From a virus (lineage: Duplodnaviria; Caudoviricetes): a stretch of DNA of 64,000 nucleotides. The notes under the pieces were generated by a model. That model was not told where the DNA came from and searched no databases. It saw nothing but the letters and a program-made list of their open reading frames with translations. Positions within the stretch are counted from its first letter, which is position 1. Each line of letters starts with the position of its first letter. The position numbers were made by a program, and so were the translations under genes. Below, piece by piece: positions 2,882 through 28,728 of the stretch. Where the stretch lies: IMG/VR virus record IMGVR_UViG_3300020577_007133, positions 1 to 64,000 of that record. One strand, given 5' to 3'.

Positions 2882-3388
2882 GTGAGTAAGTACGGAAAAA
2901 CATTGGTTTTGGATTCAAGTTTTATACCAAGGTCTATTATAAATACTGATAGGGCTTTTGTAATAAGTTATAAGGGTAATGCTGATGTCATTGCCGAACA
3001 TCCGGAATCATTCAAATTAATTAACCCTGAATTGGATATTAAAAAACCATCAATTATCAGGGTTTTTAAGTATGTGAATCAACCGATTCAAAAAGTTCCT
3101 TTATCAAGAGAAAATGTTTATCGAAGAGATGGGTACACTTGTGTTTATTGTGGGTGTGACAATCGTAAAACCCTAACTTTGGACCACGTAATACCCCAAT
3201 CTAAGGGAGGTAAAGACACTTGGGATAACTTGGTTACCGCTTGTAGAAGATGTAACAGTGAGAAGTCCAATTTGACTTTGGAAGAATACGGAAAAGAAAT
3301 TCCTCAACCTAGACGACCACATTATTTAATGTTGATGAGACAGGTTCATTACATTCCGGAAGAATGGGAACCATATTTATTATTTTAA
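2882..3388 (+). CDS. HNH endonuclease (McrA-like)
   Basis: RDGYTCVYCG..TLDHVIPQSKGG..NLVTACRRCNSEK. Confidence 0.9.
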   Translation: MSKYGKTLVLDSSFIPRSIINTDRAFVISYKGNADVIAEHPESFKLINPELDIKKPSIIRVFKYVNQPIQKVPLSRENVYRRDGYTCVYCGCDNRKTLTLDHVIPQSKGGKDTWDNLVTACRRCNSEKSNLTLEEYGKEIPQPRRPHYLMLMRQVHYIPEEWEPYLLF

Positions 3389-5920: not shown

Positions 5921-5998
5921 TGGTTAGGTGGTGCAATTGGTAGACACGTCGGTATTATAGATTAAGAGGATGTTACGGGTTCGAGTCCCGTCCTAACC
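5921..5998 (+). ncRNA. tRNA-like RNA without a canonical anticodon arm
   Basis: Perfect acceptor GGTTAGG/CCTAACC, D arm and T arm; no 5-bp stem with 7-nt loop between them. Confidence 0.65.
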
Positions 5999-6698
5999 AC
6001 AGAAGACGGAGAGTGAGCCAAGGGTTATTGACCGTTATGGTTCCTTGGGGGTCTCTCCCGAAGAAATAAAAAACAGATATATAACTTGCGTCAGTGGTAA
6101 TATGGATGTGAGGCTTGGAGTAATCAACCAAACCAAGAGACCGCCGAGGGTAGATAAGGACGTGATATCCATTATTCCCCAAGATGAGAATATCGGAAAA
6201 TCATTCTGTCTGTTTTTTTTAATTGGGTAACCTTTCCGGTGTAGCGAATCGGGCCATTCCGGTGAGAATGGTGTCATAGAATAAGGTTAATTGGAGTACA
6301 ACATATTGTAATATTTCGCGAAAAAAAGATATGTCAAGGCTCTCGGTGCGAATCCCCTGTTACCCACAAAAGTTTATCGATACGGTGAATACCGGCGATA
6401 ATCACCGTAAAAATACGGTGAAAGTAAATAAAAAGTTTAACATCTTGATGGTTGCCTATAACCAACGTATGATATAGGATAGCGTGTTGAAAGTGGTAAA
6501 CCTCGCCAATTGTAATCGATTAAGTTCAAAGGAAGATACGGCGTAGAGCATTAGGTGACGAACACGACGAAGTCCTAATCATTCCCACAAGAAGTAATTC
6601 TCAAGTAGCCCCATTACAAACCAGAGTGCGACAAAGATGTTAAATTTTTCATAAATAAATATAAAATTCCATAACAAATTGATATTTATATTATATAA

Positions 6699-6779
6699 GA
6701 GTACTGCGACCACTCAATAAAAATATTACGGAGATTTTAGAAGAACACCTTGTCGCAGAGGGTTTATTCTAACTTCTCC
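6699..6779 (+). promoter_or_regulatory. 5'-leader kissing-loop RNA of GIY-YIG gene
   Basis: Loop CTGCGAC (6704-6710) complementary to loop GTCGCAG (6752-6758). Confidence 0.55.
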
Positions 6780-6792
6780 TTTTTTATTTAAT

Positions 6793-7449
6793 ATGATAGG
6801 AATTTATAAAATAACAAGTCCTGTGGGTAGAGTTTATATCGGGCAAAGTATTGATGTTGAAAAAAGATTTAGACAATATCAAGGACTCTCACATTGTAAG
6901 AGTCAAGTAAGATTATATAACTCGTTAAAAAAACATACACCATATTCTCACATATATGAGGTATTAGAAGAATGTAGTTTTGAAGACCTTAATACCCGTG
7001 AGAGGTATTGGCAAGAACAATTTCAAGTAATGGGAAAAAAAGGATTGAATTGTAAACTAACTGCAACATCCGAACAGAAACAAGTAATGTCACAACAGGT
7101 TCGTAGTAAAATATCAAAAACTCTTACTGAGAATAATTTTTGGAAAGGTAAGTCACAATCTGAAGAACATATTAGAAAAAGAGTTGAATCACTATCAAAA
7201 CACGTTAAGACTAATGAACATAAACAAAATATATCAAAGGCTCTTAAAGGAAAACCTCTTTCTGATGAAACAAAAGTTATGATGTCCAAATCAAAAAAAG
7301 GTCAATTGAGAGACCATAACAAGCCGTTTTTTATTGACGAAATTGAATATAGAACATTGGTTGATGCTGGTCAAAAACTAAATATTCATCCTACTACTAT
7401 TAATCGTAGGTTGAAATCAGATAAATTTATTAACTATAAATATAAATAA
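6793..7449 (+). CDS. GIY-YIG homing endonuclease (NUMOD3 repeats)
   Basis: MIGIYKITSP..VYIGQS..RF; GKSQSEEH/GKPLSDETK repeats. Confidence 0.9.
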   Translation: MIGIYKITSPVGRVYIGQSIDVEKRFRQYQGLSHCKSQVRLYNSLKKHTPYSHIYEVLEECSFEDLNTRERYWQEQFQVMGKKGLNCKLTATSEQKQVMSQQVRSKISKTLTENNFWKGKSQSEEHIRKRVESLSKHVKTNEHKQNISKALKGKPLSDETKVMMSKSKKGQLRDHNKPFFIDEIEYRTLVDAGQKLNIHPTTINRRLKSDKFINYKYK

Positions 7450-7656
7450 TAAACACTCATTGTTGCCCGCTACGACCCGAGGGCGGGGTTGTTAAACTTT
7501 TTTTATTATCAATATTAATATGAATAAAATCACAATACCTCGAAGAACTTATCGTTTTCCTCTTATTATTAGGGAAATCTTTTCAATTCAAGTCCAAAAA
7601 CAACTTTACCTATCAACGAATTCGATTTGTTAGAATATTTATATTAAAAATCACAA

Positions 7657-7941
7657 ATGAAAAAATTTATTATTTCTGAAGAAGAAAAAAGAAATATTCT
7701 AAATCAATACAATATAAATGAAAATAATTTTCTAAAATTCAGATATACCGGTGACCAATATCCAACTTCCGAAATGTGTGATTGGGTTAGAAATGAAACC
7801 GAATATATGGAAGATTGGGATGAGTTAGATAGAGATTTACAAATGGATAAAATTAGAAATGATTTTTTTGATAAATTTCAAGAAGAACTAACAGATTTAA
7901 GTTATATGGAGATGTTAGATATTTTTTATAAATGTATTTAA
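7657..7941 (+). CDS. MKKFIISEEEK-family protein (putative internal head protein)
   Basis: Shared N-terminal leader; late motif upstream. Confidence 0.7.
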   Translation: MKKFIISEEEKRNILNQYNINENNFLKFRYTGDQYPTSEMCDWVRNETEYMEDWDELDRDLQMDKIRNDFFDKFQEELTDLSYMEMLDIFYKCI

Positions 7942-7943
7942 AT

Positions 7944-8339
7944 ATGAAAAAATTTATTATTTCTGAAGAAGAAAAAGACGATATATTGAATCAACATAAA
8001 GAAATTAAGGATAAACCTGAATTTCCTGAGGATAGAAGAACTTTGGATACCAATTTAAAATCATTTGATTTTACTCGTTTAAAATCTCAAGGTTTAACAC
8101 CATATTATGTTGAGACAAAATTGGGTAATAAGGTTAATATGGTTGAATTAACTAAACCAACTAAACAAGATTGGGGTACAAAACCAAAAGAAGTTTATTT
8201 ATTGACTCCGGATGAATATGAAAAAATTAAAAAATTAACGGATAATATAAATGAGATGATTGAACTCAAATTAAAACAAATTGAGTTATATAAACAATAC
8301 ATTCCGGCGGTTGCTTCAGAGATTATAAAGAAAAAATAA
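7944..8339 (+). CDS. MKKFIISEEEK-family protein
   Basis: Near-identical N-terminal DNA to 7657 gene; start at 7944. Confidence 0.7.
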   Translation: MKKFIISEEEKDDILNQHKEIKDKPEFPEDRRTLDTNLKSFDFTRLKSQGLTPYYVETKLGNKVNMVELTKPTKQDWGTKPKEVYLLTPDEYEKIKKLTDNINEMIELKLKQIELYKQYIPAVASEIIKKK

Positions 8340-8340
8340 T

Positions 8341-8757
8341 ATGAAAAAGTTAGTGATAACCGAAGAGGAAAAAAAGAATATTCTTGAACAACACTCAGAC
8401 GAACGTCAATCTAAGGAAGATAATATTATGTCTATGTTAGACCAAAATCCAAAACTTAAAGATTTAAAACAATTTGGGTTAAAATATAATGTAGGTTCAA
8501 TTAAAAATTTCTTAACTAAACAACTATCAAGAGAACATTGGAATCCGGAACATATGCCATTTCCATCAGAATTGAATATTTTGAATGTTCTTATCCAATC
8601 AAGATTAGTTAGATTTTATTTACACGAATTAATTAAAAAAAGAGGTGGTAACTATTGGTATAATTGGGAGAAAAAAATAAAAAAAGAGGATGTTGATAAC
8701 ATCCCAATCCCGGAAGCGTTATTTAACACCATAGTCCTTATTTTACAAAAGAAATAA
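8341..8757 (+). CDS. MKKLVITEEEK-family protein
   Basis: Shared N-terminal leader. Confidence 0.7.
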   Translation: MKKLVITEEEKKNILEQHSDERQSKEDNIMSMLDQNPKLKDLKQFGLKYNVGSIKNFLTKQLSREHWNPEHMPFPSELNILNVLIQSRLVRFYLHELIKKRGGNYWYNWEKKIKKEDVDNIPIPEALFNTIVLILQKK

Positions 8758-8758
8758 T

Positions 8759-9082
8759 ATGAAAAAGTTAGTTATAACTGAGGATTTAGAAAATCGAGTG
8801 ATGAATGACCAACATATTACTGATGAAATTAGTCGTAATCAAAAATTAAAAGGTCGGTCTAAATATGTTTTCAATGATAAAACACATAATTTAGAAACAT
8901 TTGGTTTAAGAAAATATAAAAGTGAATTTTACCCTCAGACAGTGTATTTTTTAACTCCGGAAGAAGTCGAATCATTCCACCAAGAAGAAATTCGAGTATA
9001 TAATTTACTTAAAAAGTTAGATAAGGCAAAAGAAACCATAATAAAATATATGGAATCTGTGGTAAGAAAAAAATTAAATTAA
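8759..9082 (+). CDS. MKKLVITE-family protein
   Basis: Shared leader; VYFLTPEE resembles VYLLTPDE of the 7944 gene. Confidence 0.7.
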   Translation: MKKLVITEDLENRVMNDQHITDEISRNQKLKGRSKYVFNDKTHNLETFGLRKYKSEFYPQTVYFLTPEEVESFHQEEIRVYNLLKKLDKAKETIIKYMESVVRKKLN

Positions 9083-9155
9083 AAAAAATCTTATCAATAC
9101 TTGACACTTTTATAAAAAGGTGTATATTTATTAGAAAATTACAATAACACAGAAA

Positions 9156-9230
9156 ATGCAAACATTAAATACAATACTATTATTAACAGGAGCGGAGGGT
9201 AGAGATACAACTCGGTCGGAGATGGTATGA
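9156..9230 (+). CDS. putative leader peptide MQTLNTILLLTGAEGRDTTRSEMV
   Basis: 24-codon ORF between late motif (about 9124) and terminator; its 3' end is complementary to the terminator 5' arm. Confidence 0.55.
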   Translation: MQTLNTILLLTGAEGRDTTRSEMV

Positions 9231-9261
9231 TGTATTGTTAAGTAAAATAATAATAACTGAT

Positions 9262-9295
9262 AAAGTCCATCTCCAAAAGAGATGGATTTTTTTTT
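9262..9295 (+). terminator. Rho-independent terminator / attenuator
   Basis: AAAGTCCATCTC-CAAAA-GAGATGGATTTT plus T run. Confidence 0.85.
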
Positions 9296-9349
9296 GAATT
9301 TTTTTTATAAAAAGTTTGGTGATTTGAAAATAAGTTATACCTTTGTCCT

Positions 9350-9589
9350 ATGGAATTTAGAACACAACATAACGGAAGAGGTAAGACCCATTTATTAGAT
9401 GACGAGTTGAATACGATATGTGGTTGTCACGGGGGTGATTTTTCACCTAGTGAAAGATTAATAATTGATGATGGTAAATTCTTTTTAAAGGGTTCTCTGA
9501 TTCAAGAAATATCCAAAGATTACTTATCAGTTGAGTATTGTAAAAAATGTGTAAAAATAATTGAAAAAAGTTTGGCAGTTTCAAAATAA
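9350..9589 (+). CDS. hypothetical protein (possible Zn-binding)
   Basis: Own promoter; H..CG..CKKC. Confidence 0.6.
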   Translation: MEFRTQHNGRGKTHLLDDELNTICGCHGGDFSPSERLIIDDGKFFLKGSLIQEISKDYLSVEYCKKCVKIIEKSLAVSK

Positions 9590-9625
9590 GTTGTATCTTT
9601 GTACCAAATTAAAAATGTAATTATT

Positions 9626-9838
9626 ATGTCGGACAAAAAAACGATGAATGAAGAATTAGTGATGGAATATTCTCCCATCTTAGGTGTGACTTACGGATTA
9701 AAAAATGTTACTCCGGAAAATGGGGATAGTGAAGAAGAACGTGATGAATTACACGACTTTGATTTAGTTATGAATCTGATAGTCGGTGATTTAGACGAAG
9801 AAGAAAAAAAAAAGATTAAAAAAAATTTGGTAGATTAA
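9626..9838 (+). CDS. hypothetical acidic protein
   Basis: Own promoter; ATG at 9626. Confidence 0.55.
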   Translation: MSDKKTMNEELVMEYSPILGVTYGLKNVTPENGDSEEERDELHDFDLVMNLIVGDLDEEEKKKIKKNLVD

Positions 9839-9877
9839 AAAAGATTTTATATCTTTGTACCGGAATTAAAAATAAAC

Positions 9878-9893
9878 GTTATTTGACATATTG
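9878..9893 (+). promoter_or_regulatory. rrn-type boxA-like antitermination element
   Basis: GTTATTTGACATATTG just after a promoter and ahead of the tRNA run; related copies at 28609 and 29543. Confidence 0.55.
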
Positions 9894-9905
9894 GTAATAT
9901 AAAAT

Positions 9906-9977
9906 GGCCCGGTCGTCTAATGGTCAGGACATTTGGTTTTCAACCAAAAAATCGGATTTCGATTATCCGTCGGGCTA
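9906..9977 (+). tRNA. tRNA-Glu(TTC)
   Basis: TTTGG-TTTTCAA-CCAAA; GGCCCGG/TCGGGCT. Confidence 0.85.
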
Positions 9978-10148
9978 CAAATGGTTAGGTAACGTAAGCC
10001 TTTACTGAATAGCTATCAGTAAGAATCACGTTATGGTCTTTGCAGAACTGAGGTGGTACTCTGACAGATTATCCGGGTTCGATTCCCGGGACGCAGGCAC
10101 GCAACTAGTTCCCTACCAAGGGGTTTTGAGAACAGAGACCTAAAATAA

Positions 10149-10218
10149 GGGCCAGATGCCAACGGCAGGTCAACTGATTTGCAATCAGATTGTTTGGGTT
10201 CGACTCCCACTGTGTCCA
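10149..10218 (+). tRNA. tRNA-Ala(TGC), imperfect acceptor stem
   Basis: CTGA-TTTGCAA-TCAG; G3:U70; T arm intact. Confidence 0.7.
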
Positions 10219-10285
10219 CGATGTAGGGTTTTACACTTTTATATTTCCTTGACGATGAATATCTGAGAAAGAAAAAGTGAATTTT

Positions 10286-10360
10286 GGTCTCGTGGGCTTC
10301 GCGGAGAGGAACTTGACTGTCACTCAAGTAAAATAGAGGGTTCGACCCCCTCCGGGACCG
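10286..10360 (+). tRNA. tRNA-Asp(GTC)
   Basis: CTTGA-CTGTCAC-TCAAG; G73. Confidence 0.85.
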
Positions 10361-10376
10361 CTAAAAATTAAAGAAG

Positions 10377-10826
10377 ATGAGTTTAGTAAAAAAAGTGAAT
10401 GCTGACTTCGTGACGGCTTTCAAAGAAAAGGACACAATTGGTAAAATGGCTTTGGGTAATTTGAAATCTAAATTATCTGACGCTGAAAAAATCAAGAAAA
10501 GTGAATTGACGGATGATGAGGCGTTAAAAGTAATTGTATCAATTGCAAAAACTCGTAATCAATCAATTCAAGAATTTACCAAGGCCGGAAGAATGGATTT
10601 GGTGGAATCAGAGAAATCTGAGTTGGAAGTTATTGAGAAATATCTTCCAAAACAAATGACGGAGGACGAAATTGAATCTGAAGTTCGTAAATTAATTGTT
10701 GAGATGGAGGTAACAACAAATCCACAAGTTCTAATCGGTAAAACGATGGGAGCGTTCAACAAGAAATTTCAAGGAAGAGCGGATGTACAATTAGTTAAAA
10801 AAATAATTGAAAAAGTTGTTGGTTAA
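10377..10826 (+). CDS. GatB/YqeY domain protein
   Basis: ..AFKEKD..RNQSIQEFTKAGRMDLVESEKSELEVIEKYLPKQMTEDEI.. Confidence 0.9.
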   Translation: MSLVKKVNADFVTAFKEKDTIGKMALGNLKSKLSDAEKIKKSELTDDEALKVIVSIAKTRNQSIQEFTKAGRMDLVESEKSELEVIEKYLPKQMTEDEIESEVRKLIVEMEVTTNPQVLIGKTMGAFNKKFQGRADVQLVKKIIEKVVG

Positions 10827-10986
10827 TTAAAAACTATTTCGTATCTTTGTCGAAGAATTAAGTAGAGGTGCTCGCAAGGTTTAGTTTAGTGTTAGTAGCA
10901 CCACCTCTACAGACTATCTGATTATTCATATCAGTCGGTCCGGAGTAATGTCCGGGGGTAGGTACCAAGTAACTCTACCAAAATTT

Positions 10987-11061
10987 GGTCTATTCGTTCA
11001 TCGGCTAGGATGCTACCCTGTCACGGTAGAGAGGAGGGTTCGACTCCCTCATAGACCGCCA
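10987..11061 (+). tRNA. tRNA-Asp(GTC)
   Basis: CTACC-CTGTCAC-GGTAG; encoded GCCA. Confidence 0.95.
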
Positions 11062-11472
11062 AACATTACAAGAGTCGTAAGCTATAATGACCCGGGCGGT
11101 TGTATCCGGACAATCAAAGTAGACAGATATCTTGTGATGGGGATAATAACCTACAACCGGCTCTGTTATCCTAAACATAAAATAGGAGTAATTAACCTAT
11201 CTTGGACGGGTTCGAAACCGTAAAGTAGTTAGAGTGTAGGCACGGCACGACCCGCTCGAGTAACTTGGAGTATTGAACGACGATAGTGTTAGTAGCACAC
11301 AATAGGGATAAAGGGCAAGTGAAAAAGGGGGTAAGTTTAAGGTTCGAGTCCTTATTAACTATCAAAAAAAAATTAGTGTAGTGTAAACGGAGAATCGACC
11401 GTTCTGTTTATTTAATCCCAATGGACGATTATGGTTTTTACCATCAGCTGGTCACTAATTTTTAACATACAT

Positions 11473-11548
11473 CGCAGGTGGGGGGTATAGAGTTTCCTCG
11501 AGTCTCATAAACTCGACGTAAGACAGGGGCGGTACCTGTACTTTGCTA
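11473..11548 (+). tRNA. tRNA-Met/Ile2(CAT), atypical
   Basis: CGAGT-CTCATAA-ACTCG; T-loop GGCGGTA; weak acceptor. Confidence 0.65.
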
Positions 11549-11564
11549 CAAAAAATAGACATTA

Positions 11565-11604
11565 TGTGTATAGGTTTTTCGGGTTGTGTATAGGATTTTC
11601 GGGT
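11565..11604 (+). repeat. 20-bp tandem duplication TGTGTATAGGWTTTTCGGGT x2
   Basis: Direct reading; between tRNA and HNH late promoter. Confidence 0.85.
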
Positions 11605-11625
11605 TTTTCGTGATATTTATATAAT

Positions 11626-12180
11626 ATGGAAGAATTAAATAGACATCAGAAAGCAGCGTTAGTAAGTAATACTAGACGTAGAGAAAAATCACTACAAGAA
11701 TATTATAGTAATCCTAATATTTGTAAGTGTTGTAATAAACCAATTCCGGTTGGTGAAAAACAAAAAGTTAGGGAAGTTAGGAGAAAGATTTTTTGTGACC
11801 ATAGTTGTTCGGCAACATTTAATAATCAATTACGAGAAATTAAAGAAAAGGTTAAGAAAATAAAAGAACCTAAACCTAAAAAAGAAAAATTTGAATTTAT
11901 ATTAAGTTTAACTAAAAAAGATTTAATAAGTAAACACGAAATTTATTATAAATTTAGAGCAGTAATTCGGAAACACGCACATTATGTGTATAATAAACAT
12001 CACGAACATCAAGAATGTAAAGTTTGTGGTTATGACACACACGTTGAAGTTTGTCATATAAAATCAGTATCATCTTTTAGTGATGATACTCTAATAAGTG
12101 AAATAAATTCTATTGATAATTTAGTTGGATTATGTCCTAATCATCATTGGGAATTTGATAATGGTAAGATAACATTATAA
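11626..12180 (+). CDS. HNH endonuclease
   Basis: CKVCG..EVCHIK..NLVGLCPNHHWEFD; FCDHSCS Zn motif. Confidence 0.9.
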   Translation: MEELNRHQKAALVSNTRRREKSLQEYYSNPNICKCCNKPIPVGEKQKVREVRRKIFCDHSCSATFNNQLREIKEKVKKIKEPKPKKEKFEFILSLTKKDLISKHEIYYKFRAVIRKHAHYVYNKHHEHQECKVCGYDTHVEVCHIKSVSSFSDDTLISEINSIDNLVGLCPNHHWEFDNGKITL

Positions 12181-12185
12181 TATAT

Positions 12186-12256
12186 TGCGGTTTGGTGTAA
12201 TTAGTAGCATAAGGGGCTCATAACCCCAAGGCGAGGTGCAAGTCCTTAATCCGCTA
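12186..12256 (+). tRNA. tRNA-fMet(CAT)
   Basis: GGGG-CTCATAA-CCCC anticodon stem and 1:72 mismatch. Confidence 0.8.
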
Positions 12257-12325
12257 GATAATCGAAGTTAATCCACCTCCACGTGGTGATTGTTGGAAAC
12301 AGGTTATGCTGGCTGAGAGATTAAC
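12257..12325 (+). ncRNA. HDV-like (theta) self-cleaving ribozyme at tRNA 3' end
   Basis: P1 GATAATC/GATTGTT with G1:U, P2 GTTAATC/GATTAAC, P3 ACC/GGT, L3 TCCACGT, P1.1 GG, P4 CAG/CTG, J4/2 CTGA (CNRA). Confidence 0.85.
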
Positions 12326-12355
12326 AAAAAATTTATTAACATTAAATACCTACGT

Positions 12356-12529
12356 ATGGCGACAGTTCAACAAAAGTCGAGACAAGCGAGAGCTTTAGAG
12401 ATGTTACAACATCAATTAAAAAGTGGTGTAAAAACCCAAAAAGGAACAAGGGACGTTAAAGTTCCACTAACCGATTTAGACAGAAAGAGGTTAGAAAAAG
12501 AGATTGGAATTTTACAATCCAAATTATAA
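12356..12529 (+). CDS. small basic hypothetical protein (57 aa)
   Basis: MATVQQKSRQARALEMLQHQL..RLEKEIGILQSKL; not in ORF track. Confidence 0.6.
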   Translation: MATVQQKSRQARALEMLQHQLKSGVKTQKGTRDVKVPLTDLDRKRLEKEIGILQSKL

Positions 12530-12618
12530 TAAAAAAATAGATGAATAGACCACATCCGGGATTAGTGATTTAATTAAAGGGTCTCATTCGGTACACAAGT
12601 CCGAAGTTCATCTTAACT

Positions 12619-12689
12619 GCGAGTATGGTATAAAGGTATTACATCATCCTGCCACGATGGAGATTCCGGTTCAATTCCGGGTACTCGCT
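12619..12689 (+). tRNA. tRNA-Gly(GCC)
   Basis: TCATC-CTGCCAC-GATGG; GCGAGTA/TACTCGC, U73. Confidence 0.9.
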
Positions 12690-12783
12690 CAAAATAGATT
12701 TGGGTGTAGGGTTATGATACGACATAACTCTTTCAATTTAATCGTAAAGATTGATAATCGCCGCAGCGAAATCTGTTTTATTT

Positions 12784-12857
12784 GCGACTTTGGTGTTCAA
12801 TGGCTAGCATATGACCCTTCCAAGGTTGAGGTACGGGTTCGAGTCCCGTAAGTCGCT
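12784..12857 (+). tRNA. tRNA-Gly(TCC)
   Basis: TGACC-CTTCCAA-GGTTG; U73. Confidence 0.9.
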
Positions 12858-13060
12858 CAAAATAGTGAAAAAGTAATTATATGAAGTAACCTTCGGGGAG
12901 ACTGCCGGAACCCTTTAACACATAGGTTGGTGAAAGTATAATGAAAGACAACGGCGCACCGGTCGTCCTCTCGGGAGTAGCTACCCGTAACGGATATGGA
13001 GATGATGTCATAGCTCCTTTAGACCGCAATGGTGAAAAATTTGGTCAAACTATTTTATTT

Positions 13061-13134
13061 GCGGGTATGGTGTTTAACGGCTAGCACGTGGGCCTTCCAA
13101 GTCTGAAGTTTCGGTTCGAATCCGAATATCCGCT
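13061..13134 (+). tRNA. tRNA-Gly(TCC)
   Basis: TGGGC-CTTCCAA-GTCTG; U73. Confidence 0.9.
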
Positions 13135-13308
13135 CAAAAAAATACGACGGAAATAGGTTAATCAGCACCTGTTATCACACATCTCAGGATACTACGTAAC
13201 TGCAGCGAATCGTAGGGAGAGATAGAAGGGAATAACCCGGGTCGGCCAACCCAAGTGGGGAAAAACTTAAAGTGGATTGTGGTGATGCTCCACAGCAGTA
13301 TTTTAATT

Positions 13309-13382
13309 GGTTCCGTAGTTCAACCGGATAGAATATCAGATTTCTAATCTGAGGGTTGGGGGTTCGAATCCCTCCGGAATCA
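13309..13382 (+). tRNA. tRNA-Arg(TCT)
   Basis: TCAGA-TTTCTAA-TCTGA. Confidence 0.95.
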
Positions 13383-13412
13383 CAAAATTTTTAATTTTAT
13401 TTGTTATTTTTT

Positions 13413-13676
13413 ATGAAAAAAATTGTTTTAAGTTTGATATTATTAGTATCTTTGGCATCTTGTACGGAGAATCAAAGAGTGAAAAGTTTTGGTGGAACCG
13501 GAACAATCAATTTACCTCAGGGTGAAAAATTGGTAAATGTAACTTGGAAAGAAGACCATCTTTGGACCATCACAAGACCAATGAGAGAAGGTGACGTTGC
13601 AGAAACTTACAAATTCCACGAGGATTCAAGTTTCGGAATTGTTCAAGGAACTTATAATATTGTTGAGACGAAGTAA
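13413..13676 (+). CDS. lipoprotein
   Basis: MKKIVLSLILLVSLASC lipobox. Confidence 0.75.
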   Translation: MKKIVLSLILLVSLASCTENQRVKSFGGTGTINLPQGEKLVNVTWKEDHLWTITRPMREGDVAETYKFHEDSSFGIVQGTYNIVETK

Positions 13677-13710
13677 TTGAAAAACGGATAGGTGAAAGTC
13701 CTATCAAACG

Positions 13711-13785
13711 CCTCCGTGGGCAAACTGGAAAAGCCGTCTGATTTAGGCTCAGAAGATTTTGTGGGTTCGACTCCCACCGGAGGTA
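13711..13785 (+). tRNA. tRNA-Leu(TAG), short variable arm
   Basis: TCTGA-TTTAGGC-TCAGA; GCCTCCG/CGGAGGT. Confidence 0.85.
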
Positions 13786-13893
13786 CAAAATACATTATCA
13801 TAACTCGGTGTGATACACCGCCAAATATCTCCTTAAACAACGTGGGAACTGCGGTTCTCCCAATGTGGCCGAAGTGATAATGTAAACTTAAAG

Positions 13894-14014
13894 ATAACTA
13901 TGTCGGAAGTGGTATACGAAGTGGTGTGTTAAATGTGGGAATAGACATAATCCCTAACCCGTAAAGGGCTAACTGCTTGTCTCTTGGTTACAGGTTCGAG
14001 TCCTGTTGGTTATC
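13894..14014 (+). ncRNA. tRNA-like RNA with about 45-nt structured insert replacing anticodon loop
   Basis: ATAACTA/TGGTTAT acceptor, D arm, AGTGGT/ACTGCT stem, ACAGG-TTCGAGT-CCTGT T arm. Confidence 0.65.
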
Positions 14015-14067
14015 AGTAGTTTAAGAGACAGAGCTGACTTCTACTTAAAAAAAATGCTCTGCGACAG

Positions 14068-14150
14068 GCCGGTGTCGCATAGAGGTTGATTGCACCTGAT
14101 TTGTAATCAGGAACTGAAAGGTCACGTTGGTTCGAATCCAATCACCGGCT
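14068..14150 (+). tRNA. tRNA-Thr(TGT), enlarged variable region
   Basis: CCTGA-TTTGTAA-TCAGG; GCCGGTG/CACCGGC. Confidence 0.85.
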
Positions 14151-14213
14151 CAAAAAAAGATAAAAAAGTTTTGATTAATTAAAATGATTATTTTATCTTT
14201 GTCGAAGAAAAAT

Positions 14214-14330
14214 GGGTAGATGGTAAATGGTAAAGCGTCCGGGGCGCCGGGAGATGAGGTTCGAGTCCTCGAAGTAGCCGGCAGGTGAAAAAGTATGGTA
14301 CTATTGTAGGTTCGAATCCTACTCTATCCA
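14214..14330 (+). ncRNA. tRNA-like RNA with two T arms and no anticodon loop
   Basis: GGGTAGA/TCTATCC acceptor; GAGG-TTCGAGT-CCTC and GTAGG-TTCGAAT-CCTAC. Confidence 0.6.
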
Positions 14331-14556
14331 CGAGTCGTTTTTTGGGGGTTCAGTTTGTGAGTCTGTTTTTTGTAGTTAAGAAAAATCAGTGGGGACAAAT
14401 AGGTAGTTAGAAGTTTCTTACCCTTAAAAGAAAGGATGGTTCGGTTTAGGACGAGATAGACAATACTTATTGGGGAAATCTCTCAAAAAAAATGGAAGAA
14501 TGGTCAAGGTTAACTCAAACCGAAGATGAATAACGTGTTCATCAGTTTTTCCGGTA

Positions 14557-14632
14557 GGTCAGGTGGAAGAGTTGGTACTTCGTTCGGTGGGAAACTGCCG
14601 AAAGGTCACGGGTTCGAGTCCCGTCCTGACTT
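14557..14632 (+). ncRNA. tRNA-like RNA with anticodon loop replaced by GAAA tetraloop
   Basis: Canonical acceptor, D and T arms; TTCGGTGG-GAAA-CTGCCGAA. Confidence 0.75.
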
Positions 14633-14857
14633 CAGGTCATCTCCTTTCGTTCTCTCCGTATGAGGGTATGGGTTCTTGGATGTAAAATGTTGAACTCGGA
14701 CGGGTGAAATAAACCAAACGATAATACGGCCTTTTTACAAATTTTTGTGCGGACAAAAAATACGGGTTCTTCGGTGGGTACCGGGTTACTTCCCTTAAAA
14801 TAACACAACTACTAAAAGTATGGGCACATATGGGGAAACCGAACCCGTGTCCTATAT

Positions 14858-14944
14858 GGTCAGGTGGCGTAATGGTAACGTAGATAGGTGATAGGGAATT
14901 TATCCTCCATCTGTCGGTCACAGGTTCGAATCCTGTCCTGACTA
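14858..14944 (+). ncRNA. tRNA-like RNA with extended anticodon-arm hairpin
   Basis: GGTCAGG/CCTGACT; GATAGGT/ATCTGTC enclosing an inner hairpin. Confidence 0.7.
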
Positions 14945-14949
14945 CAAAA

Positions 14950-15056
14950 CCTTCTGTAGTTTAACAAGAGCAAAACACAGAGACGAATACATCTCCCTAC
15001 GGTAACCATTCCAAGAATGTATTAAGAGTATGTGGGTTCGACTCCCACTGGAAGGG
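14950..15056 (+). ncRNA. tRNA-like RNA with large insert
   Basis: CCTTCTG/TGGAAGG, GTTT/AAAC D arm, AATACAT/ATGTATT stem with 24-nt loop, T arm. Confidence 0.65.
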
Positions 15057-15069
15057 CAAAAATAAAAAC

Positions 15070-15176
15070 AGTCAGGTGGCGGAATTGGTAGACGCTTTAA
15101 GGATATGTATAGGTGAAATTCCTATCACACAGGATATTGGCTGATGTCCATACAGGTTCGAATCCTGTCCTGACTA
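15070..15176 (+). ncRNA. Leu-type tRNA-like RNA with replaced anticodon arm
   Basis: AGTCAGG/CCTGACT, GCGGAATTGGTAGACGC D arm, ATAGG-TGAAATT-CCTAT insert, long variable arm. Confidence 0.7.
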
Positions 15177-15396
15177 CAATTGAGATTGAGATACTCAACA
15201 GATTTGGCATCGTTTCTTAAACAAAGATGTAGCTGACGCCTCAAACGGTTTTACAGAGGGGGTCTTCGGAAAAACGGCAAGAGAACCATCTTGACCTCCG
15301 AGTATATGGTTGACTTTTACAAGGTGTAAGAACCACAGGGTTTCAATAGGAAAACCGGAAATATCCACACCAAAGTAATCTCATTGGTGGAAAATT

Positions 15397-15555: not shown

Positions 15556-16377
15556 ATGAAATATAGACACACAAAAGAAGAACTTGAGGATGTAGTTAAA
15601 AAATCGTTATCAATATCACAAGTATGTAAAAATTTAGGTATTATTGCTGCGGGTGGTAATTATAAAACGATACAAAACAAAATAATTGAATTTGATATTA
15701 ATATATCACACTTTACCGGTAAAGGGTGGAATACTGGTGAAAGATATAGAAAAGTTATATTACCAATACCTTTGAATGAAATATTAGTAAAGGGGTCTGT
15801 ATATGGTAGTAGTAAATTGAAAAAAAGATTGATTGATGAAGGATTAAAAACTTCTAAGTGTGAGTGTTGTAATTTATCAGAATGGATGGGAAATCCAATT
15901 GGTTTGGAATTACATCACATCAACGGGGATTCAAATGATAATCAATTACATAATTTACAAATTTTATGTCCAAATTGTCATTCTATGACTGATAATTATA
16001 GAGGTAGAAATATTAAAACAAAAAAAACAGAACCAACTGAAGAATGGGTCAACACCACACTTAAATATGTTATAAATAAGAGTGATGATGAAACAAAACA
16101 AATAAAAAAACAAGAAATTAAACAATGTTTAACTTGTAACGGAGAATATACCGGAAAAAGTAAAAAATATTGTTCCATTGAATGTTATTACGAAGCAAAA
16201 AGAATAAATAACACAATCCCGAAAGTTCCTGAATTATTGGAAATTTTTGAAAAATATAAAACATTCACATCCGTTGGTCGTCATTACAATGTTAGTGATA
16301 ATGCGGTTAGAAAGTGGTGTAGAAATTATGGGATTATGGAAATGATACAAAATATTCAAACATTAAAGCGACAGTGA
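15556..16377 (+). CDS. HNH homing endonuclease with C-terminal HTH
   Basis: CECC..LELHHINGDSNDNQLHNLQILCPNCHS; VSDNAVRKWC. Confidence 0.9.
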   Translation: MKYRHTKEELEDVVKKSLSISQVCKNLGIIAAGGNYKTIQNKIIEFDINISHFTGKGWNTGERYRKVILPIPLNEILVKGSVYGSSKLKKRLIDEGLKTSKCECCNLSEWMGNPIGLELHHINGDSNDNQLHNLQILCPNCHSMTDNYRGRNIKTKKTEPTEEWVNTTLKYVINKSDDETKQIKKQEIKQCLTCNGEYTGKSKKYCSIECYYEAKRINNTIPKVPELLEIFEKYKTFTSVGRHYNVSDNAVRKWCRNYGIMEMIQNIQTLKRQ

Positions 16378-17566: not shown

Positions 17567-17596
17567 AGACCTCCAAGGAAACTTGGGGGTTTTTTT
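17567..17596 (+). terminator. Rho-independent terminator ending tRNA island
   Basis: AGACCTCCAAG-GAAA-CTTGGGGGTTT plus T run. Confidence 0.85.
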
Positions 17597-19188: not shown

Positions 19189-19679
19189 TGAATATATTTT
19201 TCTTGGATGAGAATCCAAAACTATCGGCACAATACCACGTAGATAAACACGTAGTAAAAATGATTTTAGAAACGGCTCAGTTATTATGTTCGGTTCATCA
19301 CGTAACCGGTCAAAATACCGACCAAGTTCCGTACAAGTTATCACATAAGAATCATCCTTGTGCGGTATGGGCTCGTGAGAGTTTATCGAATTATTTGTAT
19401 TTGTGTGAGTTAGGATTAGAATTGGGTGTTGAATATACTCATAGGTACGGTAAAAGACACAAATCAATAGATGTGATTAATTGGTGTATAATTAATAAAC
19501 CAAACATCCCGGATATTGGTTTTACTACTCCGGCAATGGCGATGCCGGATGAGTTCAAAACAGATTCTGTTGTGGAATCTTATAGAAATTATTATATGGG
19601 TGCTAAAGATAATTTGGCATCTTGGAAAAACCGAGAGAAACCATTTTGGTTTGGAAAAAAAGAATTACAATATGATTAA
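19188..19679 (+). CDS. pyrimidine-dimer DNA glycosylase / DenV-related family protein
   Basis: MNIFFLD..DKHVVKMILETAQLL..HKNHPCAVWAR. Confidence 0.8.
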   Translation: MNIFFLDENPKLSAQYHVDKHVVKMILETAQLLCSVHHVTGQNTDQVPYKLSHKNHPCAVWARESLSNYLYLCELGLELGVEYTHRYGKRHKSIDVINWCIINKPNIPDIGFTTPAMAMPDEFKTDSVVESYRNYYMGAKDNLASWKNREKPFWFGKKELQYD

Positions 19680-20334
19680 AATAGATAAAGAAAGAAAAGT
19701 TTTTGTAACATCCGATACACATTACGGACACAAAAACATTTGCCGTGGAGTAACGGCTTGGAGATTACCGGATGGTAGTATTCCAATATCTCAAACTAGA
19801 GATTTTCAAACAATCGAACAAATGAACGAAGCCATTATTAGTGGAATCAATAATGTTGTAGGGGAAGACGATGTGTTAATTCACTTGGGAGATTGGTCTT
19901 TTGGTGGATTTGAAAATATCCAAAAGTTCAGAGATAGAATTGTGTGTAAAGAGATTCACCTTATATTAGGTAATCACGACCATCACATAAAAAATAACCG
20001 GGAAGGTTGTCAGGAACTATTTGCTAGTGTTTCTCGTTCAGATATTATGACCTACAAATTCAAAACATTTGAATTGTTTCACTTTCCAATTGCTTCTTGG
20101 GAAAATCTAAATAGAGGTGTTATTCACCTTCACGGACACGTTCACTTACCTACAAACCTAAGATTTGGTAAAGGTAAAAAGATGGATGTTGGTATAGATG
20201 GTCACCCAACGTTTGGTGTATATGATATGGATGATATCATACGAATGATGGATAAACGTGAGATTATGTCAGATATGTTATTTGACCACCACACGGATGA
20301 GGTTGAAACTGAAGATGGAAAAAGACGTAAATAA
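19672..20334 (+). CDS. calcineurin-like metallophosphoesterase
   Basis: SDTH, LGD, GNHD, HGHVH. Confidence 0.9.
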   Translation: MIKIDKERKVFVTSDTHYGHKNICRGVTAWRLPDGSIPISQTRDFQTIEQMNEAIISGINNVVGEDDVLIHLGDWSFGGFENIQKFRDRIVCKEIHLILGNHDHHIKNNREGCQELFASVSRSDIMTYKFKTFELFHFPIASWENLNRGVIHLHGHVHLPTNLRFGKGKKMDVGIDGHPTFGVYDMDDIIRMMDKREIMSDMLFDHHTDEVETEDGKRRK

Positions 20335-20335
20335 T

Positions 20336-20614
20336 ATGAACGAATTAATTTGGAAATTTGAAATACCTGCTCAGACAAACTCTCAGGTAGAATTACCTCA
20401 CGGATGTGAGATATTAAGTGTTGGTTCTCAAGGGGATTTTGTTTTTATGTGGGGTAAGTTCCCGGAAGAATATAAAGACAGATTAGAGCCCCGAGAGTTT
20501 GAAGTTTACGGAACCGGTCATCCGATTCCGGGTGATGTTAAAAGAAAGTTTATTGGAACCGTACATATGTATGGAGGTTCATTAGTGTTTCACATATTTG
20601 AAAAATTAAGTTAA
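20336..20614 (+). CDS. hypothetical protein
   Basis: IWKF..GTGHP..IGTV..VFHIFE conserved phage pattern. Confidence 0.7.
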   Translation: MNELIWKFEIPAQTNSQVELPHGCEILSVGSQGDFVFMWGKFPEEYKDRLEPREFEVYGTGHPIPGDVKRKFIGTVHMYGGSLVFHIFEKLS

Positions 20615-20615
20615 T

Positions 20616-20891
20616 ATGGAAAAAGAAAGAGATTTAGTTATTTGTGCTTGTCATAGCACGGAACATCAGATGGTAATTTTGTATAGTGAAGATATTCTTG
20701 ATGGTGAGAGATATCCGGAAGTATATCTTCACATATTACTAAATAAACGACCTTTTTGGCAAAGGGTTAAGTATGGTCTTAAATATATTTTTGGATATCA
20801 ATCTCGTTATGGTGCATTTGAAGAAATAATTATTGATAAAAAAGATGTGGGTAAATTTAAGAAAGTTGTTGAACATTTAGAAAGTTTATAA
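20616..20891 (+). CDS. hypothetical protein
   Basis: Operonic ORF. Confidence 0.7.
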   Translation: MEKERDLVICACHSTEHQMVILYSEDILDGERYPEVYLHILLNKRPFWQRVKYGLKYIFGYQSRYGAFEEIIIDKKDVGKFKKVVEHLESL

Positions 20892-21103
20892 TGAAACAAT
20901 TTTTGATATTAATCACATTCATTATCTTAACTTCTTGCGGTGTTGAACAACGAATTAAAGATTATTCTTATACTGATAAGTGGTATTATGAAAATAATAT
21001 CCGGTATCAAGTTTATAAAACTAAACGTGGAACTCCTTATATTATCGTGTTAAATAAGAAAGAAACAAAGTTTAAAAGAAAATATATTAAAATTTCTTTA
21101 TAA
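20891..21103 (+). CDS. small lipoprotein
   Basis: MKQFLILITFIILTSC lipobox. Confidence 0.65.
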   Translation: MKQFLILITFIILTSCGVEQRIKDYSYTDKWYYENNIRYQVYKTKRGTPYIIVLNKKETKFKRKYIKISL

Positions 21104-21160
21104 AAAATTTGGCAGTTAATTTTATTAGTTATACTTTTGTCTCATCAAATAATAATAATT

Positions 21161-21532
21161 ATGGCAACACGTAGCAAAACTTTAGGATTACACGAATGGA
21201 CAAAAGAAGATAACATCTTAGCATTCTATTACACAAAATACGGAACTTATGGTTTGTATTTGAAAGATGAAAATTCATTGGCAAAATGGATTGGTTCTTC
21301 ATTAGGTTCTTTAAAAATGCAATCAGCCAACTTCCGTGGTCTTATGGGTGAATCTGAGAGAGCTTTGAGTGATTACTCAAAATTACAAGCGGAGGTGTAT
21401 AACGAGTATGGTGATATGTCTAAAATGGAATTGATGAAAGTTGCAAAACGTATCATCGACCAAGACACATACGAGAGAAATGAAATTTTGAAAAAAATGG
21501 GTAAAGACCCTAAAAAAATGGTAAGAGTATAA
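21161..21532 (+). CDS. hypothetical protein
   Basis: ORF after promoter. Confidence 0.7.
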   Translation: MATRSKTLGLHEWTKEDNILAFYYTKYGTYGLYLKDENSLAKWIGSSLGSLKMQSANFRGLMGESERALSDYSKLQAEVYNEYGDMSKMELMKVAKRIIDQDTYERNEILKKMGKDPKKMVRV

Positions 21533-22620
21533 TGGAAAGAAAATTAGCGTCGATTAGACGAATTAGTGACATCCAAGAAATCCCGGGAGCCGACTTAATT
21601 GAGTTGGCTCTTGTTGATGGATGGAAAGTTGTTGTGGCAAAAGATGTTGGTCACAAAGTTGGTAATTTGGTTGTATATTGTGAGATTGACTCATTTTTAC
21701 CAATCAAAGAAGAATTTGAATTCTTACGTAAGAGTTCGTATAAGAAAATGGGAGACCAAGAGGGTTTCCGATTAAGAACCGTTAAATTAAGAGGTCAGGT
21801 ATCTCAAGGGTTGATTTTACCAATATCAGTTTTTGGTGCATATGGTTATAGAATGTCCGAAGATTTACTTAACGAAAATCCGGCACTGGAACCTAACAAA
21901 AGTGTTATATCACCATCTGAAATGATTGAATTGGTTGTTGGTAATGATGTGACAGAAGTATTGGGTATTGTTAAATACGAACCACCAATCCCGGCAGAAC
22001 TAGCCGGAAAGGTTAAAGGATTATTTCCATCTTTCATCCGTAAAACCGATGAGGAAAGGATTCAGAACTTGGCTTCTGAGTATGAAGAAATGAAAAAACA
22101 CACTTACTACGAAACTGAAAAGTTGGATGGTTCTTCCGCGACATTCTTCTACAATAATGGTGAATTTGGTGTATGTTCTCGTAATTTAGAATTACTTGAA
22201 ACTGAAGGAAACACATTTTGGAAAGTTGCCCGTGAATTAGATTTGGAGAACAAAATGAGAGAGTATGGTATGAACATATCTTTTCAGGGGGAGCTCATAG
22301 GTGAAGGGGTGCAGGGAAATCCATATAAAATCAAAGGTCAAACCGTAAGATTCTTCAACTTGTTTGATATTGATTTACAGGTATACCATTCATTACCTGT
22401 CTTCAAAGAAACTATGAAAGAATTAGGGTTAGAAACAGTACCGGTGTTAAATACGAATTTCAAATTACCGGATACTATTGATGAACTATTGAAGATGGCT
22501 GATGGTAAATCAGAATTAAATCCGAACTTTGATAGAGAGGGTATTGTGATTAGAAGTTTGGATAGAAAAATCTCATTCAAAGTAATATCAAATAAATTTT
22601 TATTAAAACACGAAAAATAA
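21532..22620 (+). CDS. RNA ligase, DRB0094/Rnl2-like with N-terminal OB domain
   Basis: RKLASIRRI..VYCEIDS..SQGLILP; EKLDGSS, QGELIG, REGIV, FKVIS. Confidence 0.9.
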   Translation: MERKLASIRRISDIQEIPGADLIELALVDGWKVVVAKDVGHKVGNLVVYCEIDSFLPIKEEFEFLRKSSYKKMGDQEGFRLRTVKLRGQVSQGLILPISVFGAYGYRMSEDLLNENPALEPNKSVISPSEMIELVVGNDVTEVLGIVKYEPPIPAELAGKVKGLFPSFIRKTDEERIQNLASEYEEMKKHTYYETEKLDGSSATFFYNNGEFGVCSRNLELLETEGNTFWKVARELDLENKMREYGMNISFQGELIGEGVQGNPYKIKGQTVRFFNLFDIDLQVYHSLPVFKETMKELGLETVPVLNTNFKLPDTIDELLKMADGKSELNPNFDREGIVIRSLDRKISFKVISNKFLLKHEK

Positions 22621-22623
22621 GAG

Positions 22624-22950
22624 ATGAGTGGAGGTGCATTTGAATACCAGCAATATAATATTGGTCGTATCGCAGACCAAATAGAACAAACAATTATTAA
22701 GAATGGGGTTAAGAAGACCCCGGAAGAGATAAAAGATGATTGGCATAATGATGAGTGGTATGAAAAATACCCTGAAGATAAATTCCATTACAAATATCCG
22801 GATGAGGTTATTGAGAAGATGAAAGAGGCGGTTAAGGCTCTTAAGATAGCTCAAGAATATGCTCAACGAGTGGATTGGCTATTATCAGGTGACGATGGTG
22901 AGGAATCATTTTTGAGTAGATTGGACGAAAACTTAAAAAAAATAGAATAA
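22624..22950 (+). CDS. hypothetical protein
   Basis: MSGGAFEY..RVDWLLSGDDGEESF. Confidence 0.75.
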   Translation: MSGGAFEYQQYNIGRIADQIEQTIIKNGVKKTPEEIKDDWHNDEWYEKYPEDKFHYKYPDEVIEKMKEAVKALKIAQEYAQRVDWLLSGDDGEESFLSRLDENLKKIE

Positions 22951-22951
22951 G

Positions 22952-23977
22952 ATGTTAGAAAAACTAAATCAATATTACGAAGACGGATTACTTTACAAAC
23001 AAGTACATCCAACACTTCCATTAACCATATGGAACTACACAGAAACCGTGCAGTTTGAAGGAAAGTGGGACGAAATAACTTTGATGTGCCGTGGGTTGGT
23101 AACGGATGATAAAGGAAATATTGTTGCAAGACCTTTTACCAAATTTTTTAATATAGAGGAAGGAAAATACACTCCAACTGAAAACTTTGAGGTATTTGAA
23201 AAAATGGATGGTTCATTAGGTATCGTATTTTGGTACGAAGGACAATGGATACTTGCAACCCGTGGTTCATTCACCTCAGACCAAGCAGTCAAAGGAACCG
23301 AAATCTTAAAGAGATACAACACCGACATATTGTTTAGACATATGACTTTTTGTTTTGAAATTATCTATCCGGAGAACAGAATTGTTTTGGATTATGGTGA
23401 TGATGAAAAACTTGTTATGTTGGGAGCGTTTGACCGGTGGGGTAAAGATTATGATATCTCAGATTGGGATGAATGGGGATTTGACGTGGTTAAAAAATAC
23501 GATGGAATTAAGGACTTCAAAGAACTTAAAGCTATGGTAAAAGATGACCAAGAAGGGTTCGTGGTGAAATTCACCAATGGAGATAGAGTTAAAATCAAAG
23601 GGGTAGAATATCTACGTCTTCACAAAATTATGACCAATATGTCAACCACTGCCGTTTGGGAGTGTCTGAAAAATGGTGATGATATTGAAACTCTATTGAA
23701 AGATGTTCCGGATGAGTTCTATAAAAAAATCAAAGATTATGTTAGAGATTTGAGATACGCTCATTTCCAAATATCTGAGAGAGCGGGAAAACTTCACGAT
23801 GGATTCCGATATGGGAAATATGGTGATGTTGACCCGGAACCATCCAAAAAAGAATTTGCTGAGTTCGTATTCAAACAACAAAAAGTGTTACAACCTGTAA
23901 TGTTTGCGATGTGGGATAAAAAGAACTACGATGAAATTATATGGAGGATTATCCGTCCGGAATTTAAGAAACTTTAA
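22952..23977 (+). CDS. T4 Rnl1-like RNA ligase
   Basis: CRGL, ARPFTKFFN, EKMDGSLG, EGFVV, RVKIKGVEY. Confidence 0.9.
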   Translation: MLEKLNQYYEDGLLYKQVHPTLPLTIWNYTETVQFEGKWDEITLMCRGLVTDDKGNIVARPFTKFFNIEEGKYTPTENFEVFEKMDGSLGIVFWYEGQWILATRGSFTSDQAVKGTEILKRYNTDILFRHMTFCFEIIYPENRIVLDYGDDEKLVMLGAFDRWGKDYDISDWDEWGFDVVKKYDGIKDFKELKAMVKDDQEGFVVKFTNGDRVKIKGVEYLRLHKIMTNMSTTAVWECLKNGDDIETLLKDVPDEFYKKIKDYVRDLRYAHFQISERAGKLHDGFRYGKYGDVDPEPSKKEFAEFVFKQQKVLQPVMFAMWDKKNYDEIIWRIIRPEFKKL

Positions 23978-28314: not shown

Positions 28315-28643
28315 ATAAAAAAAAATAAAAAAAAAGTTTGGCAGTTACAAAAATATGTCTTACTTTTGTCCAAGAATTACACATCATACTAAAAATATAA
28401 TTCGGGGGTACCATAAATATGAGTACAGTAGTCAATCATCCCGGTGAGACAGATGATAAGTAATTCTCAAAAAAAAATGTTAAAATGTTTGACAGATTAA
28501 AATAAATGTCTTACCTTTGTACAACAAATCACGGGTGGCTCCCTTAATAGTTAAGGCTGACCTTAAACATCCGACGAATGTCTATACAGGGGGCGAAAGT
28601 GATTTTAAGTTCTTAAAAATATTGAAAAAATATTGAAAAAATA

Positions 28644-28728
28644 GGTGAGTGTTGTGTCGCCGGTTCGATTCCGTCCTTGTGTATCTTGATGAAAAGCAAG
28701 TAGCTCAGTGTTAGAGCATACACTCACT
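28644..28728 (+). ncRNA. circularly permuted tRNA mimic (YrlA/Y-RNA-like)
   Basis: Terminal stem GGTGAGTGT/ACACTCACT, then T arm, loop-closed acceptor CTTG/CAAG, then D arm GCTC-AGTGTTA-GAGC. Confidence 0.75.

Follow-up and report, generated by a model that had tools for sequence, protein, structure and literature searches.

Anticodon-less tRNA-shaped elements in a phage tRNA array

The window analysed here, the first 64 kb (64,000 nucleotides) of a 104.8-kb phage record in IMG/VR (IMGVR_UViG_3300020577_007133; completeness estimate 35%), carries within its tRNA array a set of tRNA-shaped elements that lack an anticodon arm. ARAGORN made 22 tRNA calls and a tmRNA call in the window. The T-arm motif GGTTCRANTCC occurs 26 times versus 0.23 expected, and 11 of these copies lie outside the ARAGORN tRNA and tmRNA calls (the one at 14557, called as '???', is counted among the 11). 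Three of the 11 were reached by the Rfam tRNA model, those at 10150 and 14858 at gathering score and that at 14214 in a whole-region E-value scan.

An initial annotation of this region described tRNA mimics that keep the acceptor stem, D arm and T arm and lack a proper anticodon arm, and such elements are indeed present at its seven main sites. In each, a canonical T arm with a 5-bp stem is followed by a 7-nt strand that pairs at 7 of 7 positions with a strand 75–121 nt upstream. A D arm is present in most of the seven; the claim of preserved D arms needs qualifying for the element at 14950, whose D loop lacks GG, and for that at 14214, whose D stem is only 2 bp long. Between the D and T arms, a sound 5-bp stem under a 7-nt loop is missing from all seven, the element at 5922 being borderline. 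Except in 14557 and 14214, inserts of 27–70 nt are found. As the initial annotation had anticipated, ARAGORN called no main element as a normal tRNA, with 14557 ('???', 4-base 'gaaa') and 5922 (Ile(tat)) as partial exceptions. To fit the elements, the Rfam tRNA model has to place large insertions at the anticodon region (46.1 bits for 14858, 37.7 for 15070 and 31.2 for 14214).

All seven elements are on the plus strand. Four of them (5922, 14557, 14858 and 15070) share one acceptor, RGTYAGG/CCTRACY, as initially described, and with it a tRNA-Leu-like D arm; we refer to this frame as the chassis. The element at 15070–15176 is a textbook example, with an AGUCAGG acceptor, a tRNA-Leu-type D arm, A15-U48, A73 and an insert of 52–55 nt. 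The element at 14858–14944 has the chassis with a GGUCAGG acceptor and an insert of 32–37 nt that forms a nested hairpin in the minimum free energy fold; its Rfam score includes a 25-nt insertion. The minimal element at 14557–14632 has a full tRNA frame with G15-C48 and a discriminator U, and its anticodon arm is the GAAA-capped 8-bp helix noted initially, which we located at 14583–14602. The element at 5922–5999 is a chassis variant with the acceptor GGUUAGG/CCUAACC, A73 and a Leu-like D arm. Its pseudo-anticodon sits in a 7-nt loop with U33 and R37 on a weak stem (two Watson-Crick pairs, two G-U pairs and one mismatch), which makes it borderline. The element at 13894–14014 (121 nt) has an AU-rich acceptor, C73 and a 66-nt insert, and that at 14950–15056 (107 nt) has its own acceptor with two G-U pairs, and G73. 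The element at 14214–14330 represents a 'double T arm' class. Its acceptor contains G3.U70 with A73, and it carries a tetraloop hairpin (14239–14250), a third hairpin and the second T arm of the initial annotation, a T-like hairpin at 14256–14270.

A large family carried by phages

We searched IMG/VR for the 21-nt 3' half of the chassis (T arm plus 3' acceptor), which is common to 14557, 14858 and 15070. Matches were found in at least 120 contigs, with at least 167 copies and up to 7 copies within 5 kb. The counts of 150 and 151 elements given below are counts among the matches listed. A 5' strand was recognisable in 150 copies, 146 of them distinct, with lengths of 53–190 nt. The 5' 26 nt of the chassis are near-constant, and the middle between the two ends is nearly always different. 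ARAGORN labelled 34 of 151 elements and gave them 24 different 'anticodons', many of types rare in bacteria; the conserved acceptor, D and T body is thus not associated with one anticodon or isotype.

Prokaryotic genomes were searched with one genome per species (185,579 species). The chassis pattern was found in 20 stretches only, all on contigs of metagenome-assembled genomes (MAGs), mostly freshwater Bacteroidota bins. No decoding tRNA was found among these 20 matches, and because all of them are anticodon-less and lie on MAG contigs, the chassis is a property of phages and not a copy of a host tRNA. The chassis 3' half was found in no isolate genome of the same search, and mimicry of a host tRNA sequence was rejected on this ground. 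BLAST returned no close cultured relatives; matches in Enterococcus phages proved to be true tRNA-Gln genes with a similar T arm and acceptor. The family is absent from the RNA catalogues searched, and the literature searched by sequence string and by topic, with subscription journals outside its coverage, gave no description of it. Together, these predicted RNAs form a family that is very large, uncatalogued and phage-borne, with swappable inserts.

Selection on the tRNA body

The tertiary core of a tRNA is conserved in the elements. U8 is present in 177 of 188 elements, GG in the D loop in 149 of 157, A15-U48 in 120 of 188 (G15-C48 in 8) and A73 in 125 of 144. Among the 188 elements, both partners switch in the D-stem pairs 11:24 and 12:23, and 13:22 is mostly G.A, as in tRNA-Leu. 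The chassis D arm is nearest to the tRNA-Leu genes of its own arrays, with a mean identity of 0.72 versus at most 0.63 for any other isotype. A 7-nt loop at the anticodon position occurs in 6 of 75 element helices versus 105 of 145 true tRNAs of the same arrays. The 5922 element and its orthologue in the sister genome L146 differ at three bases, and two of these changes compensate each other in a T-stem pair.

The 14214 class comprises 14 distinct sequences from 25 contigs. With 5' strands that were found by requiring complementarity, and whose register is set independently by the conserved D region immediately after them, 100% of the acceptor cells are paired, all 224 of 224 pair cells are standard and six of the seven pairs show double changes. 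The covariation score of this acceptor was 0.495 versus 0.222 in shuffles (0 of 500 reached 0.495), and slid partners were at most 55% paired.

The elements also resemble true tRNA genes at their borders. In the arrays of L001–L120 and of the window, C74 is present in 97% of elements versus 100% (174 of 174) of true tRNA genes, and U-1 in 80% of elements versus 70% of true tRNAs. An A-rich trailer is common to both, and CCA is seldom encoded (12 of 174 true tRNAs). The universal C74 without an encoded CCA suggests an unusual 3'-end rule shared in these arrays. In the window, strong terminators at 9262–9290 and 17567–17592 bound the unit that holds the elements, which are on the strand of the tRNAs. 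The compensatory changes in the chassis, the conserved core bases and the flanks of true tRNAs uphold the earlier proposal of selection rather than decay. As far as sequence can tell, the elements are selected, modular, non-decoding RNAs and neither decayed nor intron-bearing tRNAs.

Inserts are exchanged between elements

BLAST divided the 188 inserts into 18 small classes, with the remainder being singletons. Within classes, helices change by compensation and loops are unchanged; the inserts of L012 and L054, for example, differ by three base pairs in one 6-bp helix and have the same 9-nt loop. We aligned sister genomes by an anchor protein (15556–16377 in the window), which L146 and L147 encode at 100% identity. 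Both are also 100% identical to the window over tRNA-Leu, tRNA-Thr, 14214, 14557 and two 225-nt spacers. At the site of 13894, L146 keeps the acceptor and T arm and has an unrelated insert of about 100 nt. The trio 14858/14950/15070 corresponds in L146 to a single 77-nt element, the start of which equals the 14858 start and the end the 15070 end. L148 has two copies of another insert, also found in L025. Six contigs (L185 and L203 among them) carry the 13894 insert on the AGUCAGG chassis with its helix compensated, and the whole 14950 element is found in L191 at 97% identity between unrelated flanks. These swaps and recurrences indicate that chassis and insert are separable and that elements move as cassettes. 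The earlier description of tRNA scaffolds with variable RNA payloads therefore fits well, given about 150 different inserts on one chassis, independent recombination and covarying insert classes.

We also looked for targets and relatives of the inserts. For eight window inserts compared with their own 104.8-kb record, the longest complementary matches were no longer than in shuffled controls, giving no antisense target. At the Rfam gathering threshold, the known RNA families in 15 loci were tRNA, tmRNA and one group I intron only. Clustering of the neighbouring proteins (1,360 open reading frames (ORFs) from 120 loci) gave DUF932, terminase, SegE-like GIY-YIG, T5orf172 and metallophosphatase as the top families.

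Weaker elements and neighbouring genes

Among the weaker sites of the initial annotation, that at 11282 is a 137-nt element whose true start is 11226, that at 9982 came down to an orphan T arm, and that at 6226 was unconfirmed. The element at 11226–11362 (plus strand) has an acceptor, a D-like arm and a T arm and is 98.5% identical in L146. Part of its insert (11260 region) has a 15-nt exact repeat at 10886, about 370 nt upstream and before tRNA-Asp (10987). The orphan T arm (10073–10089) has no pairing acceptor; it abuts the 5' end of a closed 130-nt element at 10089–10218 (plus strand), with base 10089 in common, the 3' part of which scores as a tRNA at 31.6 bits. A possible further element lies at 28584–28683 (plus strand), beyond the range initially annotated, with 4 of 5 T-stem pairs and a 7 of 7 acceptor including two G-U pairs.

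The spacers that separate elements at 14331–14556, 14633–14857 and 15177–15396 (plus strand) are ORF-poor and 220–226 nt long; L146 matches two of them at every base, and overall the three have no marked structure (z about -0.5). A small hairpin (5-bp stem, 7-nt UGAAAKU loop, plus strand; two matches versus 0.1 expected) occurs at 13689–13703, just upstream of tRNA-Leu(tag), and at 15110–15124, within the 15070 insert. A similar hairpin is found in an insert of L080.

Four homing-endonuclease-like genes are placed amid the tRNA genes on the plus strand (1421–2068, 2882–3388, 6793–7449 and 11626–12180), two being GIY-YIG/NUMOD3 and two HNH. The plus strand also carries a YqeY/GatB-like gene (10377–10826) and an RNA repair-like cluster (19516–23977) with a phosphoesterase (phrog_547) and two RNA ligases (phrog_968; phrog_562, T4 Rnl1 type). 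A full-length GOLLD RNA is found at 30017–30442 (plus strand; 304.8 bits, cut-off 150); the RNA-rich region that it occupies also holds the tRNA island. A match to an HDV-like ribozyme of the F. prausnitzii type (12257–12325, plus strand) is below threshold (30.5 bits versus 44); it begins directly after tRNA-Met (12185–12257) and resembles a theta-type ribozyme.

Proposed explanation and alternatives

Starting from the anatomy, selection, modularity and spread established above, we hold with slightly more than even confidence that the elements are non-decoding tRNA-shaped small RNAs of the kind of T5 RNA1 and RNA2 and T4 RNAC, with a chassis-plus-module architecture that is shuffled and a likely role in conflict. 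They would be transcribed as part of the tRNA operon, excised probably by RNase P and the tRNA 3'-end pathway, completed to CCA and folded into an L shape; the tRNA-like flanks indicate that processing and CCA addition probably occur. The constant chassis, mostly tRNA-Leu-derived, would see to it that the RNA is matured, is stable and is recognised by proteins that bind the body of a tRNA, and the anticodon/variable region would have given way either to a blunt helix with a cap or to a structured module that can be exchanged. Recombination at the conserved ends of the chassis would pass modules, and also entire elements, from phage to phage. The Seg/HNH homing endonucleases of these islands probably aid this shuffling, and SegB-type enzymes may be its engine, because GIY-YIG and HNH genes lie in the island and SegB of T4/T6 cuts T-loop-encoding DNA and causes tRNA regions to be exchanged and amplified (PMC13096335, PMC2330249). 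The speed of turnover suggests that the elements serve in conflicts with hosts or with other phages. As a candidate mechanism, the elements might, at a guess, act as uncleavable ligands of tRNA-binding enzymes; a decoy role against PrrC, RloC or PARIS would likewise be a guess, as nothing in the sequence singles it out. A bolder version, which we put forward tentatively and consider rather unlikely, is an RNA cassette system in which a tRNA-Leu-derived universal adaptor, serving processing, stability and delivery, displays a huge and rapidly changing library of aptamer-like modules, each directed against a different host or rival-phage protein and shuffled by homing endonucleases. If true, this would be the RNA counterpart of protein anti-defence islands.

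Several points weigh against our proposal. The search pattern held the 3' half fixed, so the uniformity of the chassis is partly a sampling effect. The inserts overall fold barely better than mononucleotide shuffles (mean z -0.50; 10% below -2), so that the constraint on many of them may be loose. In about a dozen minimal members the anticodon stem is capped by a 3–5-nt loop, tetraloops included; members such as 14557 are cargo-free, which suggests that the chassis alone is functional. Taken together, the weak overall folding and the loop-capped members imply that the chassis itself must matter and that the inserts are heterogeneous. A linked partner protein was not found, the best neighbour family being present at 14 of 120 loci. 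Finally, the RNAs of these uncultured phages are known from sequence alone, and those of the window are predictions.

The weak folding of the inserts would also suit pure tRNA-body decoys, in which the chassis is active, the blunted anticodon arm lets the RNA bind tRNA-targeting nucleases, toxins or host factors uncut and with no effect on decoding, and the inserts are tolerated variation. Tetraloops replace the anticodon loop (GAAA in 14557, GGCA or GGCG in the 14214 class), an RNA repair cluster adjoins, and phage tRNAs counter tRNA-cleaving defences (PMC11555353, PMC13096335). However, insert classes keep their helices by compensation and keep their loop sequences, and one insert is conserved on two different chassis; we regard this explanation as unlikely. 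The elements could instead be aminoacylated non-ribosomal carriers, or ligands of synthetases or EF-Tu, with the chassis Leu-charged and a 14214 subclade Ala-charged, used outside decoding or titrating charging factors. Leucyl-tRNA synthetase (LeuRS) needs A73, U8-A14, A15-U48 and the G18G19 core and can dispense with the anticodon arm (PMC2377443), and the chassis keeps every one of these determinants (A73 in 125 of 144). G3.U70 with A73 is found in 8 of 14 sequences of the 14214 class, in three acceptor variants, but G3.U70 is missing from the other 6, so that identity is not uniform. Moreover, some elements have C73, G73 or U73, many tRNAs share A73 and the core bases, and no linked transferase was found among the neighbours, which leaves charging improbable.

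The equal flanks of elements and true tRNAs, the long unit between the two terminators and the conservation in L146 of the 220–226-nt spacers could point to processing punctuation only, in which the elements are cutting marks for RNase P and RNase Z that free neighbouring RNAs or mRNAs, comparable to plant mitochondrial t-elements. Yet three elements are separated by gaps of only 5 and 13 nt, which leave nothing to be freed, true tRNAs would do equally well, the insert covariation is unexplained and the spacers show little structure, and we find such a role quite improbable. That the elements are debris, namely decaying tRNA pseudogenes or chimeras from endonuclease-driven recombination kept only as DNA target sites, accords with the homing endonuclease genes in the island, the T-loop DNA that forms the SegB cleavage motif (PMC13096335) and the rapid turnover. 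This idea is scarcely credible given that the acceptor halves always pair, that tertiary pairs and inserts covary, and that the identical design is found across hundreds of contigs, T5 and SPP1. Hardly any weight falls on tRNA genes whose introns are spliced out to give normal tRNAs, although RNA ligases and a phosphoesterase are encoded nearby and a related locus has one group I intron. The inserts are only 20–120 nt long, with no flanking halves of an anticodon stem and no consistent anticodon, and no Rfam intron match was found in the window, where bulge-helix-bulge motifs were not searched for.

Comparison with known RNAs

The tRNA-like domain of tmRNA resembles the elements in having an acceptor and T arm and a large insertion that replaces the anticodon arm, and its G3.U70 alanine identity is also found in 14214. 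Unlike tmRNA, the elements contain neither a reading frame nor pseudoknots, and Rfam does not match them to tmRNA. The only match to tmRNA (RF00023) in the window, at 32474–32868 (minus strand, 84.5 bits), is a separate true tmRNA of the phage with a tag ending in VVVA; a phage SmpB is encoded at 31578–31985 (plus strand, 167.5 bits). The YrlA or bacterial Y RNA module (RF02553) likewise gives a non-coding RNA a tRNA-shaped part and is found in phages too, but it is circularly permuted, and its two ends lie in the Ro-binding stem. It was rejected here: the best match reached 22.2 bits versus a cut-off of 69 and spans two adjacent elements, an artefact of a T arm adjoining the next D arm. No Ro60/TROVE gene was found in the 104.8-kb record. 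In the engineered 'tRNA scaffold' attributed to Ponchon and Dardel (2007), a cargo reportedly replaces the anticodon arm and the tRNA body gives processing and nuclease resistance; this is a laboratory design, and its likeness to the elements is a functional analogy only.

Stable RNAs of T4 and T5 are closer; small RNAs of this sort were recognised decades ago in the tRNA regions of both phages. RNAC (species 1 RNA) and RNAD of T4 are small stable late RNAs encoded in the tRNA region next to segB. Reviews as late as 2022 give the function of RNAC as unknown (PMC3014915, PMC9697503). The end of RNAC, like that of the elements, consists of a canonical T arm with an acceptor-like stem; unlike them, it lacks a clear D arm, and its closing stem contains two U.U mismatches. 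RNAD has no tRNA features in its predicted fold. The T5 RNA1, RNA2 and RNA3 (T5s03, T5s06 and T5s07, misc_RNA in NC_005859) are annotated as 'tRNA-like stable RNA with unknown functions' and are encoded, like the window elements, within a phage tRNA cluster, on the tRNA strand and beside HNH endonuclease genes. RNA1 resembles the chassis in its tRNA-Leu-type D arm, long insert, T arm and closing acceptor, and RNA2 resembles 14214 in its inner second T-like hairpin. The acceptor sequences and inserts differ from those of the window, and the likeness is one of shared design with no alignment statistic behind it. Like T4 RNAC and the three T5 RNAs, the elements lie inside a tRNA cluster on the strand of the tRNAs and combine a T arm and a closing acceptor-like stem with the lack of an anticodon arm, at 70–170 nt.

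SPP1 (L210) contains an unannotated chassis element at 6646–6754, and a Leuconostoc phage carries another. Right after the SPP1 element, at about 6765–6810 (plus strand), lies a second and much smaller hairpin, which has a closing stem and a cap that resembles a T loop. The stable RNAs of the T4 and T5 type would thus be no oddities and would belong to a very large, selected and modular family with one dominant chassis and hundreds of inserts. The pattern points to conflict biology, for which T5 RNA1 and RNA2, T4 RNAC and the SPP1 element at 6646–6754 offer experimental handles.

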